Positions 30,155 to 38,500 of a stretch of DNA of 64,000 nt are shown piece after piece. The stretch spans positions 3,782,001-3,846,000 of the forward strand of contig CM030338.1 of assembly GCA_017654855.1 (NCBI GenBank). Reading direction: 5' to 3'. The stretch's first letter is position 1, and the number at the start of each line of letters is the position of its first letter. The notes under the pieces are model-generated. The model did no database searches, was not told the origin of the DNA, and worked only from the letters and a program-made list of their open reading frames with translations. Both the position numbers and the translations under genes were made by a program. The stretch is from Podospora anserina. Lineage: Eukaryota.

Positions 30155-31858
30155 CTACAGCGTGATTCCCTCGATCTTCCCTAGAATCCTCTCAACGAAC
30201 TTTATCCCGACCACGATCAGATCCTGTTTGTTATGTGTGACGTCCGAGCTGCCGAACTCATTATTCCCATCATCCAAACAGGTAAGACAATCCACCACGA
30301 TCTCTGTATACAACCACCCCATGCGCTGCGGGAGGGTCTGTTTTGTCAGCAAGACAAGATCCTCTTTGATCCATGACGTGGATCCTGGTAAATGGGCATG
30401 TTCAAAGTCCCGATCGCTCAGATGCTTTCTCAGCTGCAGTGAATATCCAGGAACAGGAGTTGGGATCGATGATGACGAGTTAGTGTGATTGGGGTGATGA
30501 TAGGTTGACGAGGTCGAGCTACTGGTGGACGGGTACCAGACCAAAGACCGCCATAATCCAATCTCAAGGAGGCACACACCCAGGCTATATATATCGTGCT
30601 GCATAACATATCTCTCCAAAATGCAAAGTCCCTGTCGTGCTGGATGCCGGTAAAGGTTCCGATACCAGGCTGTGTCACCGAGGCGGTTCGTCTCCATGTT
30701 GATGCTTCGAAATTGCGAGAAGCCGACAAGAAAAGCCTGGCCCAGTTCCAGAGGTCGCAGAGCAGCAAGAGCTGTTGGGAACAGCAGAATATTGTCCGGA
30801 CGAATATTCTTGTGTACCAAGTCGCAGGTGTGCACGAAGCTGACAGAACGAACAAGCTGTTTTGCCAGTGCGATGACCGAACTGAGACAAACAGGTCTTT
30901 GCTCAAGTAAGAGGCTGCGAAGGGTGGTAGGCGGCTTGAGAGGGTCTGCCTGGGCCGGGGTATGATACACAATCTGGGGACCGAGGGGAAAGGTCTTGTT
31001 GTCGTCAATGATCTCGAGGAGACCCTTGCAGCGTAGAAGGCCAAATATGCTTGGGTCAACGCTCTGGAGTCTCCTGCATAGTTGATAGGCGTCCGATGTA
31101 GTGTTTGTGTTGGTATTTGGGGCAGTACCAATGCCTTCCATGACATACAGACTTTGAGATTTCGGTCGGGCCACAACGTTGACGCTTGAAAAAGGAACGC
31201 TGGTTGCTGTGGTAAAGTCCCATCCTGTCTCATCCATGACGATGCTATTCGCACTTCTGATATCGGTGTTGATCGTGTAATCGATGGCCTTTCTTAACGC
31301 AAACATGTGATCCAGAGGGCTTGCGGGAGATTGGTTGTGTGGTAGCTGTCGGGATCTATCTTGTCCTAACTGCTGCAGTGCCGGGTCCAAGACCTTGCCG
31401 CCGATGAGCATAATCGTATACCACGATGGATCGAACAGACTTTGCCAGCACTGTAACTCCGTCATCAACGCGTCCAACCCTTTTTTGGCCACAGCATATC
31501 TCCACCTGTCAAGCTGAAGCATTCTGGTCAGCACATGTCCCTGTCCAGTACTGGTGGAGGCGACTATCGATGAAGCCGCTGCTTCGAGCTGAGATACCGC
31601 CTGTAGCAGAGTTCCGCGTAGTCTTTGGAGAAGATCAAAATGACATTGTGCAAGTTCTTCAGTCAGATGATCTTTGATCCCGCGGAGGAAAACGAGCTGT
31701 ATCTCTAGTTTCGTCCAAATCGTTTCGAGTAAAAGCACCTTATCACAGAGATCTTTCTTCGCAGTCCTGAAAGCTTGGCAGATGCGCAGGGTCTTGTTGG
31801 CAAGCTTGATGCAAATGTCGACGACGCTGACAACTGCGAGAGCGAGTTCTGCAGACAT
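30155..31858 (-). CDS. HeLo-like (HELL) N-terminal domain plus C-terminal pseudokinase (MLKL-like architecture)
   Basis: MSAELALAVVSVVDICIKLAN amphipathic N-terminal helix; RWRYAV..WQSLFDPSWY; kinase C-lobe VHKNIRPDNILL (HRD to HKN), LVGFSQFR (no DFG), YRHP, HDIYSLGVCLLEIG; intronless. Confidence 0.8.
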   Translation of the reverse strand: MSAELALAVVSVVDICIKLANKTLRICQAFRTAKKDLCDKVLLLETIWTKLEIQLVFLRGIKDHLTEELAQCHFDLLQRLRGTLLQAVSQLEAAASSIVASTSTGQGHVLTRMLQLDRWRYAVAKKGLDALMTELQCWQSLFDPSWYTIMLIGGKVLDPALQQLGQDRSRQLPHNQSPASPLDHMFALRKAIDYTINTDIRSANSIVMDETGWDFTTATSVPFSSVNVVARPKSQSLYVMEGIGTAPNTNTNTTSDAYQLCRRLQSVDPSIFGLLRCKGLLEIIDDNKTFPLGPQIVYHTPAQADPLKPPTTLRSLLLEQRPVCLSSVIALAKQLVRSVSFVHTCDLVHKNIRPDNILLFPTALAALRPLELGQAFLVGFSQFRSINMETNRLGDTAWYRNLYRHPARQGLCILERYVMQHDIYSLGVCLLEIGLWRSLVWYPSTSSSTSSTYHHPNHTNSSSSIPTPVPGYSLQLRKHLSDRDFEHAHLPGSTSWIKEDLVLLTKQTLPQRMGWLYTEIVVDCLTCLDDGNNEFGSSDVTHNKQDLIVVGIKFVERILGKIEGITL

Positions 31859-32497
31859 GGTTCTTGCAGTTCTGTGGACCAGGTGACGCGATTGTGAGGT
31901 TGTTGTAAGGTATGTTGTATCAGATGGTAAGGTGGTGATGAAAAAATGCGGTCTGTGTCGGCTGGTTTTGGCGTGGCGCAGCTCGGGGAAAGGCGTCGTA
32001 GACAATATAATAGACAATGGAGCTATCCCGAAAGATGCTAACCAGAAACACCATGGATGTCTTCAACAGCTCTTGTAATATACCTATATCAAGCACCTCT
32101 AAAGGAGCTGAAAGGGTATGTGGACTGCCCTTGCAGGCATATTACTTGCCACGGTATCTAGGTAGGTAGGTATCTTTAAAGACTTATTAACTACCTTCAA
32201 AAGTCTGTGAACTATCTTCCAAATCCTCATCCAAAGTACAGATTCCATTTTTTTTGTCCACGACGTATTCAGGGGTCGGCTGACTGCTGCCTGGCCGCCG
32301 CTTGCATGTGGCCAAGCAAGCCACAGCGCCATAGCTCGTTTCTGGACGCGCGCTGAAGACAGGGGGCGCGCTGAAAACTAAAAACGCGCTTAAATCCAAG
32401 GCATGAATATGGATGTTAAATACTGCCATCGTTCCTCACTGTCGTATCACTTAGAGCCTGACTTACCCATATATGAGGTAGTTTGGATGCTGTGACC

Positions 32498-34458
32498 ATG
32501 GCTGAAGGTATATCCGAGTTGGTTAATTCCTCTCGGCTGGTGACAGAATTTTACCTCCCGAATTTTGTTGTCCACCATCTTGAAACTGTTAATGAAATCT
32601 GGGATCTGAGAGAAGAAATTGGCTATGGAGGATCTGGCGTGGTGCGAAAAGAGGAACGTCGAGTTCACTCCAGTGGAGAGAAATATCAGGGTCCAATGGT
32701 ACGAGCCGTGAAACAGATGAGAAAGGTTCCTCAAAACCCAGACCAAGGACAGTGGAATTATAGAGCCGAGTTGGAAGCAGTGGTGAAGTTCTCACAGCCA
32801 GAGGTATGCAAGCACGTGTGGTGGAAATGTCCAATGAAAGTTAACATTCAGCAACTTGCTAGTATGACCCTTTCTTTGTGCGCACCTTTGGGTGGTTCGA
32901 AAACCAAGAATCTGTGTTTCTGGCCATGGAATATCTTCCATCGAGTGACCTAGAGAAATTCAGAAGGTCCTCGCCTCCGCTTTCCGAATTTGACACGAGC
33001 CTGATCGTGTGGCAGCTGATTCAAGGTGTGCGACACATGCACGATGCTGGGTTTGCGCATCGAGACTTGAAGCCAGGGGTAAGTGGTGATACTACGTGTT
33101 CTTCATGTCCTCGACCATGTCACATGTGTCCCAATACAGTCAGTCGTTATTGCCTGTAAATACCTAGCTCACATCGACATACCCAGAATATACTCATTGC
33201 CTCAACATCACCGATCTGGCACGTCAAAATCGCCGACTTTGGAATCAGCAAGCAAGCTATGCAGGGTGTAACACGCTTTCACACCATGCGAATCTTCGGG
33301 ACCTTGGGATATATGGCACCCGAGGTATTGGGTTACTATGCCAACAACACCGGAATCAACAATACCACGATTGCATACACTATGTCGGTCGATATTTGGG
33401 CCGTTGGTGTAATTGCAATGACCTTGCTGCTTGGGCGCGATATCTTTCCTTTGCCGGGCGATTACGCCAAATATGTCTTTGGACAACGGGCTCTTGACTT
33501 TGCCCGTGGTCAAGGTGAGGTTTTGACAGACGATTGCCAGGACTTCATCGCGGCCCTTCTTGCAGCGGATCCAATACTTCGACCGACTGCTGCTGCTGCC
33601 CTCGCCCACCCTTGGTTAATGCAGGCCACCGAAGCAACTGAACCTTCTCCAGTAAGAGAGATCCCGGACTCGGAAGCAGACTCAGACGAGGACTCCGCTC
33701 CATCTGATTCACTACAGCCTTCCACAAAGAATCCGTGGGCGACAATCGGCAGTAGAACTTGGCCGAGCAAAGGATCGAAGACATACAGCGACGCGCTCCT
33801 GACGAAGTTCAAGTACCTCTGGCTTGATATTATTCTTCTATCTCCCAAGTTCCATACTATTGAGTTCGAGAAGGTTTGTCTCTCTCCTTGTCCATTGGCC
33901 AGCCAATGGCACGATTTAACGGCGTTCTTCTTCACCTCAGACTCGGTTTTATGTTCTACGCTCCGATAACGCCACAGATATTGAGACAAGCGCTGCTCAG
34001 AGCGTGTGGACTTCTAGTCAGCGTGTCAACAAGATCCTTGACAAAGGATACCGGACATCCGAAGGCCATGTGGTTCTATTCTTCTCCGTGATTGGTAGGT
34101 AAGTAATCGTTTCACATGATTCAAATTACCTATTACTGGTGGAGGTAGGCAAGGTATCTTATAAAGACATGAAGCTGACACACACTGCACCAGTCGGCGA
34201 TTCTGTGGAGTAGCACAGATGACCAGCGCACTGGATTGGGAGAATACTGACCCCCATTGGGTTGAGGATGTCTGGCAGGGACGGTTCACCTTGGCCTGGC
34301 TCAGTCATACAGAGCTCTCATTTGACCTTGTCAACCATGTCCCGGTAAAGGAGACCACACCGGGTTTCAGAGCTATCGCTTGTTACGATGGCACTGAGAT
34401 CTCACCTGGATCCGCATATGAATTATTGAGAGTTTTTTCGGCGGCGGAAAGACGGTGA
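32498..34458 (+). CDS. Ser/Thr protein kinase fused to a C-terminal YTH domain (543 aa, 5 exons)
   Basis: Exons 32498-32803, 32863-33078, 33187-33873, 33941-34098, 34194-34458 splice in frame (1632 nt). Kinase: GYGGSGVV, RAVK, HRDLKPGN, DFG, APE. YTH: RFYVLRS..VWTSS..NKILD..LFFSVIGSRRFCGVAQM..HWVEDVWQGRF..YDGTEI. Confidence 0.85.
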
Positions 34459-34843
34459 TCGTGGACTTGAGTTTATCGGGATCCCACATCAAGGTGCCTG
34501 GGTACCTAGGTAAGATATTTGGGTGGCCTTACTCTGCGATCGGGGTCAGAGAGTTGCTAGATCCTGGTATCATTCCATTGGGTCAGATTGGTTACATTAT
34601 CTTATCAACCAGGACGAGGACTCCTACCTAAGTGCCGCCGAGAGGCCGGCCAACACAGAAGGACACAGTCACCGCGAGGGGCCTTGATGGGGTAGTAACA
34701 TTCTCAGGTACTTGTATATTCATGGCCAAAAGCACTATCCTTCTCAACCGACAAGTAGACTCTTGTCAAATTCAAGGAACTACAGCCAGACTTCATGAAA
34801 CAAACCCCGGTTTCTCTTCACCCATCTCCATTCATCCCTCGCC

Positions 34844-35570
34844 TTAAATCCACTGATAAACGCTGAGTTTGCTTGAACCACCGCAAGTCTCGGTGGGAGC
34901 ACCAGTACAGGCCAAATCACAATCCGTGTCTTCGAGTTGGACGCTCAAAGCATCTAGCTCATGGCCACAAAAGCATTCAGCCATGTATTGCAGTCCAAAG
35001 AAGACAAATCCAGAGTTGAGACAGTAATCCGCACAGCGTTCGATTGTCATGGCCGCAGGGGAGAAGCCAAAGCCTCCAGCGAGAGCCCGATCGGGGGCGG
35101 GGAGCTCACTAAAGCATCCTTGGTACACTGGGGCGGAGACCTCAGGGTGAGGATAAGGCGTATGTGGAGGGGCCTCCTCAGAACTGCCCCAGAGAGAGAT
35201 GCGGTTTGGACCTCCGCATGTCTGACCGGCGTCTCCAGTGCATTGCATGGAGCAATCTTCCGGGAAGGTAGGGAAGGAACCTGTGTCAAGAGAGTTGCCA
35301 CAGTAGCTGTGAGACTTGTTAGATACCGGATGATACGGAAACGGGGAGAGCTTCTTTGACTTACCACTCGCCTCCATATTCTAGTCCCCAGAGGGTGAAA
35401 TTACGGGTGGGATCGGTGCAGTATGTCTCGCAAGCCTCCACGGTCATCGCCTCGAAATCCGCGGTGCTCGCGCCAGTCAAAGCCCGAGTGGGAATTTCCG
35501 TATAGCAGCCGTAAGAAGTTTGCCCGACGACGGCGGGGACAAGGGCGGCAAGAGCGAGAACGGAGTACAT
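34844..35570 (-). CDS. Secreted double-WSC-domain protein, 1 intron
   Basis: Signal peptide; YGCYTE..MTVEACETYC..GLEYGGECYCGN..C...CGG repeated twice. Confidence 0.88.
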
Positions 35571-38500
35571 CTTGATGGGTTGGAAAAGATCTTTGGTTGA
35601 GATTGTAGAGGATGGTGACTGATGATGGGGGAAGAGATCAGAATGACAACATCGAGGGTGGTCGTCTTACTTATAGACTTCGAGGCATCATCCTCTTTGC
35701 TTCTTCATGGTTGTGGATATATTGTGACTGATTGCGTCCCGTCTGGCCTATCTCCTGTGTCCCCAACACCATTGACTCGATACCACTCTGCATTGGTACT
35801 CTCCCAAGAAGGTAAACACGGAGTGCACCTGCATGATCGCATCTTGACGAGCCTCGAACGCCCGGCTAACGACAAAATGTCTGGCATGCAGAAAAGACAA
35901 TATCACATGCAGCCCAAAAGAGATATACATGCAAGTGGACCCCTGAATCCTTCGTACGATCCGTGAATCGAAATAGCCTCAATGTCTCGTCAAGATATCG
36001 CCAAGACCTTTGAGGTTGTGTAACCAATGCTGATGGGAAAATCGTGACATAAAGGTAACTAGGCAAGATACCTACCGACTTAGATGATTGACTGCGGTTC
36101 TTGATAGAAGTGTGCCCATAATTTTGTATAATCCTTCATTGCACTCAAGGTTGGCGCTCAGTCATTACCTACCTGGAAAACCAGATCTTCAACGGCAAGG
36201 GATGCGGATCGTTCCGTTCCTCGAGGTCCCTGAGCTTGCAAGGGTCTAAAGCAGAAAGCTGCATATGCCAGCCCTCGGATTACCACCCTGTACCTAGTTA
36301 GTACGTACTTTTCTGCTTCTTACGCTCACCGATTTTCCACAACAAACGCCGAGTTGCAAAGATGGACTCACGCCGGGCGCCGGCAGGGAATATAATTCAA
36401 TAGAGAGTCAGCCACTTGCCCAAGTTCTTTGACCGGACAAGTCCCGCCAGCAGGGAAAAAACAGTAAAGTAAGCGTGGCCAGAAGGGGGCGTGCTGCATG
36501 CACTGTTGCGCAACATAGCCCAGAAATTGTTGGAGCCAGGACTCTTTGAACAGTGTCTAGAAGTTGCTTCGGTCAACGGGTTCGCCTCCAAAGATAGACA
36601 AGAGAGAGTAGCGTCGGTGTCACGGTAGGTGGATGCGATGAGACCCTGATGCAGATCGATTGTGACGTGAGGCTCCCCCATGCACACATCCTTTGTAGCT
36701 GCAATATGTGAACCGCGGTTGCGGGATTGTTTTCCGCGCCATTCAGCGGTCAACGCGTGCAGGCGTGACATGGCCGATGCCAAACCATCGGGGGTTTTAC
36801 CTATTACCCGTTTCTTTTTTATTACACACGATCTGATATCCGTCCATGCATGTCTCAATGGGCCCCTGATTCCCCATTCTGTGGGGTTGTGCTACCAGGT
36901 CTTGCCGCCCCCTGAAGAGGCTGATGGCCTAGACGACAGCTTGCCAGGGGCATGAATGCTACCCGAGTAACTAAGAAAAACCTAAGCGGGAAGGTGACGG
37001 TTCTTGAATAACACCTCGGGGAGGTAGGCCAAGCAAAATAAACGGTCTGGACGCAAAAGCTGAACAAATGATCTCCACCGAGTACTACATGACTTGACAC
37101 CCAGTCTCTATTGTCAGACCACCCCGCCTGTGGTAGAGTTGGACTTCTCAGGTTGTAGTCACAGTGCAGTTGCATATTTGGCTGCAGAGCTATATCTGCA
37201 GGATATCAATATCGAGCAGAGATTTCGATGGGATCCTCATCCGACTCGGCCGTGATTAGGAAACGCTGCGAGAAAGGACGCACGGCACCCAACGGGTATC
37301 ATCCACTTGCCAGACTTGCAGAGCACCATTTCATGCCGCTGTACCCTTTGATAAGGGATAGAATATCAACCTGAACAGTCTGGGTAAGAAGGAAATTCCT
37401 CGGGACTGACGACAGCCCTTGCGTTCAAGTTGCAAAGCAGATGGAGTTCATGAACGCTCCTGGGAAAGGGCATCGGATGTTCCGGTAACATGGATCCTGT
37501 TCCAGTCACGACTGCCAGAGGATTACCTTAGCTTTGCCGCTGCCACAGTGCCACACCGGCCCAGTCTCACCAGATGCAAAGTTCTAGCCAACTTCCAATG
37601 GTGGCTGTATTGAGTCCAATATGGACGCTGTGTGGCTAGCTGACAGGCCCCAATTGACCTTTGAAGCTGACACAGAGTCTACTAGATATATTCATCGTGT
37701 ATGACCCTGGATCGACTTGAAGCGCATCGGTAATTACTCACGGATTCCCACCTTCATTGATGACAAGACTCTGTTCACCTAGCCACATACGCCATTTCAC
37801 AGCCATTCTCGTCACCATGCTGCCTATTCACTCACTTGAATCTTGAAATGACTTTCTGACATAGACACTGGTCCCACGCCTTCAAAAGCGCTGATACCAA
37901 ATAGACTGTGGGTGTGTAGTAGCCGCTAATCCTACACAAACACGCACATGGATGACCAAGTACCAATTTCCACTACAGAGCAGACGTCATTGTCTCGGTA
38001 CAGGCTGCCATGCCATCTCCCGGACTGATATATAACGTTCCTACCGATGTCGCACTCCAATGGCCACCACCGCTATGGGTACATCCCCCATGCTGACTCA
38101 AAACCAGGTCCCAACAACCTACTCAGGTATCCGGTTGTAGTCAGGATTCTACTGGTACAATTTGATCATCTCGACAGTGGTACAAGATCCCTACTCATAT
38201 TACAGACCCTGGCCAATAGGCGACCTAATCTCTGGTGATGGTGTGATTTGTGGCTTGACGGTTTTTGTGGGGTGCCTACGATGTGCATCGACTCTAGATT
38301 AACGACATGTTTGCAGAAAGGCTAGCGATGTTTGGCATATATAAAGACAATACTCCAAATTCGAAAACATCTTTCTGCGAGAGGTTCTATTTACATTGCC
38401 GTCTGTCTACCTATTCAGCCTCCCCACATTAACGCCAATTCAATGGGTTGCATTGCGTCACCGCTGAGCAGAGCTCGTGTCTATATGATTGGGACGAGCA

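Follow-up and report, generated by a model that had tools for sequence, protein, structure and literature searches.

The stretch of DNA analysed here, a 64,000-nucleotide window of the Podospora anserina genome (GenBank assembly GCA_017654855.1, contig CM030338.1, positions 3,782,001 to 3,846,000 of the forward strand; all coordinates below count from the first letter of the window), contains a gene in which a protein kinase is joined to a YTH domain, a module whose usual role is the recognition of methylated adenine in RNA. Reading the sequence together with its stop-to-stop open reading frames (ORFs) over 31500-36500, we place this kinase-YTH gene on the plus strand at 32498-34458, with its ATG at 32498 and with five exons separated by four introns, all of which are of the GT..AG type. 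Joined by script, the exons give 1632 nucleotides, or 543 codons with a single stop at the end. The encoded protein consists of an N-terminal extension, an RD kinase, a disordered acidic linker and a complete YTH domain of the YTHDF/Pho92 type with a Trp-Trp-Trp pocket.

The start codon lies in exon 1 (32498-32803), which further encodes a conserved N-terminal extension, the glycine loop and the ATP-anchoring Lys (codon 32711-32713). After intron 1 (32804-32862; 59 nucleotides, with TTAAC at 32841), exon 2 (32863-33078) encodes the kinase from the N-lobe to the catalytic loop HRDLKPG, with the codon of the catalytic Asp at 33064-33066. Intron 2 (33079-33186), of which both ends were checked, is 108 nucleotides long and is followed by exon 3 (33187-33873), which holds the kinase C-lobe with the DFG Asp codon (33235-33237) and the APE motif; the 3' part of this exon encodes an acidic, Ser-rich disordered linker and then a short conserved segment that precedes the YTH domain. 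The joint across intron 3 (33874-33940; 67 nucleotides, TTAAC at 33916) is the one that fuses kinase to YTH, and retention of this intron leads to an in-frame stop at 33967-33969. Exon 4 (33941-34098) encodes the first third of the YTH domain, including the first Trp of the predicted aromatic cage (codon 34007-34009). Intron 4 (34099-34193; 95 nucleotides, CTGAC at 34175) interrupts a Ser codon and would, if retained, introduce an in-frame stop at 34100-34102. Exon 5 (34194-34458) encodes the remainder of the domain, including the other 2 cage Trp (codons 34258-34260 and 34273-34275), and ends with the TGA at 34456-34458. An initial annotation, made from the sequence of the window, had set the boundaries of the last 2 introns at 33873/33941 and 34098/34194; these are exact, as are the GT..AG ends and the 2 elements at 33916 and 34175, and translating 33941-34096 and 34195-34455 reproduces the YTH peptides that it quoted.

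The spliced product can be compared directly with an annotated protein of Podospora bellae-mahoneyi (P0003, 547 amino acids). The two are identical at 530 of the 543 residues; P0003 differs by 13 substitutions and by a 4-residue stretch that results from the use of another intron 1 donor. In the P0003 model this donor lies 12 nucleotides further downstream, so that window positions 32804-32815 become coding and add VCKH (P0003 residues 103-106).

Both halves of the YTH domain are recognised individually by the Pfam YTH profile (PF04146; length 135), the gathering cut-off of which is 22.1 bits. The translation of 33941-34096 in exon 4 matches profile positions 1-50 with 48.4 bits (expectation value (E) 1.1e-12), and that of 34195-34455 in exon 5 matches positions 54-134 with 48.6 bits (E 8.7e-13), so that each half alone exceeds the gathering score, far beyond chance. 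The two matched parts adjoin at the proposed splice, with the split Ser codon and its neighbours filling positions 51-53. Full orthologues score higher, for example P0007 with 104.2 bits over profile positions 1-133. When compared with the sequences of solved structures, the exon 5 half retrieves 10 distinct sequences, all of them YTHDF1, YTHDF2 or YTHDF3 (best E 3.6e-07, for YTHDF2), while the 12 sequences retrieved by the exon 4 half are those of YTHDF1-3, the yeast reader MRB1 and one zinc-finger YTH protein.

For structure prediction, residues 378-547 of the orthologue P0003, rather than the window's own spliced protein, were modelled with 40 orthologues as the alignment. The resulting YTH-only model has a mean predicted local distance difference test score (pLDDT) of 84.9 and a predicted template modelling score (pTM) of 0.83, and it is predicted to adopt the alpha/beta fold of YTH domains. 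The best fold match is YTHDF2 bound to N6-methyladenine (m6A; 7ywb_A), with an E of 2.6e-14, a target template modelling (TM) score of 0.86, a root-mean-square deviation (rmsd) of 2.1 Å and 30% sequence identity. Over the 10 top fold matches, target TM ranges from 0.83 to 0.89 (0.86-0.89 for those to YTHDF2), and the rmsd is 1.7-2.6 Å in nearly all the matches listed; YTHDF3, YTHDF1 and YTHDC1 rank below YTHDF2, with YTHDC1 at 24-26% identity. In the ESM Atlas, the clusters nearest to the YTH part are all plain YTH families (scores 0.91-0.93), which adds nothing beyond Pfam. Since the sequence matches and the predicted fold matches are both led by YTHDF proteins, we assign the domain to the YTHDF/Pho92 type.

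The Pfam Pkinase profile (PF00069) matches exon 2 over positions 58-126 (E 3.1e-14) and exon 3 over positions 127-263 (E 1.2e-23), and the window product has the glycine loop, the ATP-binding Lys, HRD, the catalytic Asn, DFG and APE. These motifs are almost invariant in an alignment of 31 orthologues (A1, from which P0034, a 996-residue model running into a cytochrome P450, is excluded): the Lys is found in 28 of the 31, with 3 gaps, and the HRD Asp, catalytic Asn, DFG Asp and APE are each found in 31 of 31. As judged from these residues, the domain is an apparently active RD-type Ser/Thr kinase. The nearest solved relatives of the P0003 kinase are Rad53 (E 1.1e-29), STK17B, DAPK2, CaMKII and CaMKI, and a full-length model (pLDDT 70.8, pTM 0.55) matches CDPK, CaMKII and phosphorylase kinase in a fold search, with only kinases among the matches listed. 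We therefore describe the kinase as probably CAMK/Rad53/DAPK-like, a placement by nearest sequence and fold relatives. Taken together, PF04146 on exons 4 and 5, Pkinase on exons 2 and 3 and the existence of two-domain orthologues bear out the proposal of the initial annotation that a YTH domain is fused here to a kinase; the resemblance to YTHDF/Pho92 proteins that it had recognised by eye is upheld by the matches to YTHDF1-3 and MRB1 and by the YTHDF2 fold match, and the profile comparison and structure prediction that it put forward as checks both come out in its favour (both halves above the cut-off; the YTH-only model at pLDDT 84.9 and matching YTHDF2).

A further check, for the 4 junctions in RNA data, was made on the contig sets of 4 public runs (X1, X2, X5 and X7; 24 listed) over 32200-34900. 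The RNA label of these runs is a guess, and a contig was taken to bridge a junction when at least 31 letters lie on each side of the joint. Contig coverage of exon 1 starts at 32450 in X1 and at 32491 in X2, and each of the 4 proposed junctions is present in spliced contigs. The first 2 joints (32803|32863 and 33078|33187) are each found in one contig of X1 and one of X2, so that the upstream donor of intron 1 is backed by both runs; the donor of the P0003 model was unseen in the contigs. The joint that fuses kinase to YTH (33873|33941) is bridged by X2 record 9, whose shorter side measures 216 letters; it is also present in X1 record 5, where one side has 18 letters and thus falls under the 31-letter rule. 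The last joint (34098|34194) is confined to X1 record 5, in which the side measures 158 letters. No contig of these runs bridges both junction 3 and junction 4 with at least 31 letters on every side. X2 record 9 has intron 3 spliced out and intron 4 (34099-34193) kept; if it represents a sense mRNA, the stop at 34100-34102 would yield a kinase with one third of a YTH domain. Alternatively, sense and antisense reads may have been merged into this contig.

Antisense transcription is indeed evident at the locus. A transcript on the minus strand (33786-34813) lies over the YTH exons and has its own minus-strand intron at 34564-34627. It is represented by X5 record 14 and X7 record 20, which span about 33786 to 34807 and contain a CT..AC joint (34562|34627); in X5, a loose end with a run of T precedes 33786. 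Both contigs traverse introns 3 and 4 unspliced, and because of their CT..AC joint they have to be regarded as minus-strand RNA that is uninformative on the sense mRNA. Their span and minus-strand intron therefore indicate that a minus-strand transcript overlaps both YTH exons. This transcript is probably the long 3' end of a convergent gene for a WSC-domain protein, and it might function as natural antisense RNA for the kinase-YTH gene. The WSC gene lies downstream at 34847-35582 on the minus strand and is covered by contigs of X1, X2, X5 and X7; its product looks secreted and has two WSC domains (Pfam WSC, E 7e-29 and 5.7e-07), encoded by two ORF pieces that are split by an intron near 35380.

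Given these contigs, one could argue that the fusion is a minor or non-functional isoform, that the usual product ends in a retained intron 3 or 4 and that the YTH exons are mostly represented by antisense RNA. The retained intron 4 in X2 record 9, the presence of junction 4 in one contig only and the passage of the X5 and X7 contigs through introns 3 and 4 all fit such a scenario. However, the X5 and X7 contigs carry the minus-strand joint and derive from the other strand, the splice falls exactly where profile positions 1-50 and 54-134 adjoin, and conservation over the 31 orthologues is highest in the YTH domain, which would be unexpected of a rarely used appendage. We consider it highly improbable that the fusion is a by-product of this kind.

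The pocket of the YTH domain was compared with that of YTHDF1. Three Trp and one Asp of the window protein align with positions 48, 102, 107 and 38 of the YTHDF1 chain 4rcj_A, which an offset of 363 converts to W411, W465, W470 and D401 of YTHDF1; the first cage Trp, encoded at 34007-34009, aligns with the Trp of SIWCST. According to an excerpt of the YTH-domain review PMC6112328, the m6A cage of YTHDF1 consists of W411, W465 and W470, and D401 corresponds to N367 of YTHDC1, which contacts N1. Of the 31 aligned orthologues, 30 have the first cage Trp (one gap), all 31 have the second and the third, and 30 have the equivalent of D401. The three intact cage Trp of the initial annotation are thus confirmed, and, as far as aligned residues can tell, the family appears to combine the two features of m6A-reading YTH domains, three Trp and a polar residue at the N1-contact site.

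We put the chances at about even that the YTH domain binds m6A in RNA and thereby brings the kinase to proteins on those RNAs. In such a mechanism, binding of m6A by the YTH domain would hold the kinase, via its flexible tether, at m6A-marked transcripts, where the kinase could phosphorylate proteins of the same RNA-protein particle, such as factors of translation, decay or processing. The built-in enzyme would then substitute for the effector arm that other YTH readers recruit.

Several observations weigh against this proposal. The evidence for junction 4 is a single contig from a single run, and an antisense transcript spans the YTH exons. Moreover, two positions that align with contact residues differ from the YTHDF proteins and are fixed in the family: the residue aligned with the Tyr 4 positions before D401 of YTHDF1 is Asp in 27 of the 31 orthologues, and where YTHDF2 has the Arg of its SRDTQE stretch, which we take to be an RNA-backbone contact, 29 of the 31 have Tyr. 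The YTH domains of the family are also near-neutral, with a median net charge of -1 and a median isoelectric point of 6.2 (n = 31), as compared with a net charge of about +5, by hand count, for the aligned YTHDF1 stretches. A negatively charged groove is one of the reasons given in an excerpt of PMC6112328 for the failure of Mmi1, a YTH protein of Schizosaccharomyces pombe, to bind m6A RNA.

Because two contact positions are altered and the domain is near-neutral, the ligand may differ from canonical m6A RNA. Single-stranded DNA with N6-methyladenine, a free adenine nucleotide methylated at N6 or, as for Mmi1, an unmodified RNA motif could be recognised instead. YTH pockets can accept ligands of the first two kinds, since complexes of YTHDC1 with N6-methyladenine DNA (7l4y, 6wea) and of YTHDF2 with the free base (7ywb) have been solved, and these complexes are among our fold matches; with regard to the third, the YTH fold of Mmi1 is described in the excerpted part of PMC6112328 as binding unmodified RNA at another surface. 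On the other hand, the family retains all three cage Trp and, in 30 of 31 proteins, an Asp at the D401 position, where Mmi1 has Ala. In addition, 9 basic positions of the domain are kept as Lys or Arg in at least 28 of the 31 orthologues, and a tenth, R546, lies just past the Pfam match. On balance, a ligand other than m6A RNA seems unlikely to us, and binding of m6A in RNA is the reading that we favour.

The linker between the two domains bears on how the kinase would be controlled. It is acidic, disordered and about 60 residues long (P0003 residues 330-390 have pLDDT below 50), and its mean identity to P0003 is 17%, compared with 52% for the kinase and 73% for the YTH domain. The ligand-binding module would thus be the most constrained part of the protein, and the linker appears to behave as a tether. 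At the same time, 3 Thr of the activation loop (T207, T211 and T217) are nearly invariant, and partial conservation is also seen in the segment directly preceding the YTH domain (L391, D392, L395 and L396). The kinase activity is likely to be regulated, since the enzyme is of the RD type and has conserved activation-loop Thr. CAMK-type kinases are typically controlled by a C-terminal regulatory segment. These features are compatible with a switch resembling that of PKR, in which ligand binding by the YTH domain relieves autoinhibition or drives dimerisation of the protein on RNA, so that the kinase becomes active; the occurrence of methylated RNA would then be converted into a phosphorylation signal. 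A long, disordered linker of such low identity is more in keeping with a loose tether than with a fixed regulatory interface, however, and the full-length model (pTM 0.55) has no confident interdomain arrangement. Prediction of a complex between the kinase part and the YTH part gave scores of 0.00 and 0.00, in runs made without controls and with alignments unused, and yielded no verdict either way. In view of the linker and the full-length model, a switch of this kind is not what we expect, and recruitment of a tethered kinase to m6A-marked transcripts remains our preferred reading.

In its most general form, the switch would make the protein a sensor kinase for nucleic acid modification, a counterpart of PKR that senses base modification instead of double-stranded RNA, with occupancy of the YTH pocket switching on a CAMK-like kinase and providing direct epitranscriptome signalling in fungi. 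We regard this as doubtful. Such a sensor might have m6A in RNA as its ligand; since contact residues are altered and the surface is non-basic, a free N6-methylated adenine nucleotide arising from RNA turnover is another candidate. An immune-type, fast-evolving sensor was rejected as an interpretation: conservation within the protein is highest in the YTH domain, and the pocket is invariant.

The fusion is shared by many fungi. In a search of longer proteins for matches to the exon 5 peptide, 32 of 63 candidates passed an E of 0.001, and all 32 have both PF00069 and PF04146; these 32, apart from P0034, make up the alignment A1. With the YTH part of P0003 and targets of similar length, 44 of 190 candidates passed, again with both domains in every case. 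Neither search returned a canonical fungal YTH sequence. These searches detect only proteins that share exact words with the query, so that the distribution obtained is a minimum. Carriers belong to the Sordariales, the Xylariales, some Hypocreales and a few others, and include Podospora, Cercophora, Triangularia, Apiosordaria, Rhypophila, Immersiella, Chaetomium, Madurella, Canariomyces and Achaetomium, numerous Xylaria, Nemania and Astrocystis, and Dactylonectria, Emericellopsis, Verticillium, Amylocarpus and one Lasiodiplodia record. Among 32 candidates of fewer than 300 amino acids, 8 matched and none was a stand-alone, full-length close YTH relative; we rejected these 8 as split genes, given that they are exon-sized fragments of 61-109 amino acids that cover 34-59% of the query. 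The 996-residue P0034 of Verticillium longisporum, in which the kinase-YTH part has no kinase N-terminus and runs into a cytochrome P450 (PF00067), probably represents two merged gene models. The distribution of the fusion may be patchy, since Table 1 of PMC10826363, in the part available, lists a single PF04146 protein, YTH1, for Fusarium graminearum.

An exhaustive search with P0003 returned 455 representatives at E up to 1e-30, and we scanned the best 76 of the 150 listed representatives with Pfam. Pkinase is present in 75 of these 76 and YTH in 7; the other C-terminal parts include WD40-type propellers (up to 5), TPR (3) and RhoGAP, ENTH and SH3 (2 each). The top 8 listed representatives score at least 351 bits and the next about 240, and YTH is found in 7 of these 8, the exception being P0035, a 433-residue model. 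Because the drop in bit score coincides with the YTH-bearing matches, the fusion family can be placed, by sequence comparison, as a small, separate branch within a large family of fungal kinases whose C-terminal parts differ. The nearest kinase-only relatives (P0041-P0108) are about 40% identical and likewise vary in their C-terminal parts. This fungal kinase branch seems prone to C-terminal domain shuffling.

Upstream of the kinase-YTH gene, a minus-strand ORF of 567 codons (30158-31858) encodes a helical N-terminal part followed by a match to the kinase profile that stays below threshold (22.5 bits against a cut-off of 31.7, E 8.8e-05). With HKNIRPDN in place of HRDLKPxN, its product may be a pseudokinase. 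A bacterial promoter and terminator scan over 33700-34900, which is inapplicable to a fungus, returned 0 and 0 sites.

The initial annotation had called the YTH domain hidden. This holds for a plain ORF track, in which the domain does not stand out; by contrast, orthologues in public protein sets list PF00069 and PF04146 side by side. The architecture is therefore already in public protein sets, where the names of the orthologues mention only a kinase. No description of a kinase-YTH protein was found in the open-licence full texts of PMC and bioRxiv, supplements excluded, and the design, although conserved in many moulds, seems never to have been studied. In the available part of a phylogeny of fungal m6A factors (PMC10826363), the word "kinase" is absent and entries with "irrelevant protein names" are stated to have been removed; term look-up in the accessible text of a survey of EVE and YTH domains (PMC7641849) gave no description of such a protein. 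Likewise, the excerpt of a rice m6A survey places a Pkinase domain on ALKBH proteins and not on YTH proteins, and "YTH" is absent from the portions at hand of a Madurella kinome paper and a survey of fungal kinase domains; the pocket-residue passages of PMC6112328 mention no kinase-YTH protein either. Among the fungal YTH clades of PMC10826363 is a "PHO92" clade restricted to Pezizomycotina, which could correspond to the kinase-fused family. Surveys of fungal m6A readers that filter by name can miss kinase-fused members. The family spans many Sordariomycetes, among them the genetically tractable Podospora as well as plant and human pathogens (Verticillium and Madurella).

The usual view is that YTH readers work through the factors that they recruit; if our preferred reading is correct, a reader with a built-in kinase would, as the initial annotation suggested, link RNA base modification directly to phosphorylation signalling. 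The closest known systems are YTHDF1-3 and yeast Pho92 (MRB1), which belong to the same Pfam family, have the same fold and provide the best sequence and fold matches; YTHDF1 also has the same Trp-Trp-Trp cage and the same Asp at the N1-contact site as the kinase-YTH protein. In YTHDF/Pho92 readers, the YTH domain is the only globular domain and is accompanied by a low-complexity region that recruits effectors, without an enzyme domain. The kinase-YTH protein differs from them in that the partner is a kinase, in the changes of Tyr to Asp and of Arg to Tyr at contact positions and in the non-basic character of the domain. The N-terminal two thirds of the protein are made up of the kinase domain, and since this other part is an enzyme, the protein as a whole falls outside the YTHDF/Pho92 reader type.

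Kinases that carry an RNA-related module are known: PKR combines double-stranded RNA-binding domains with an eIF2-alpha kinase, and KIS/UHMK1 combines a kinase with an RRM-like UHM domain. The kinase-YTH protein is alike in principle, with a recognition module and a Ser/Thr kinase on one chain, but the recognition modules are not homologous; compared with PKR, moreover, its kinase is by sequence CAMK/Rad53/DAPK-like instead of an eIF2-alpha kinase, and the order of the domains is reversed. Mmi1 of S. pombe, a fungal protein with the YTH fold as well, shows that the fold is no guarantee of m6A reading: as described in an excerpt of PMC6112328, it has Ala at the N1-contact site and a blocked pocket. 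The kinase-YTH family, by contrast, has Asp at the N1-contact site in 30 of 31 proteins and keeps the three Trp. Finally, there are precedents for a YTH domain inside a larger enzyme or processing factor, namely YTHDC2, in which it is combined with an RNA helicase (PMC6112328, excerpt), and plant CPSF30-L, in which it is combined with zinc fingers (PMC7641849, excerpt). The partner domains of YTHDC2 and CPSF30-L act on RNA, whereas a kinase acts on proteins, so the output of the kinase-YTH protein would be signalling and not the remodelling or cleavage of RNA.

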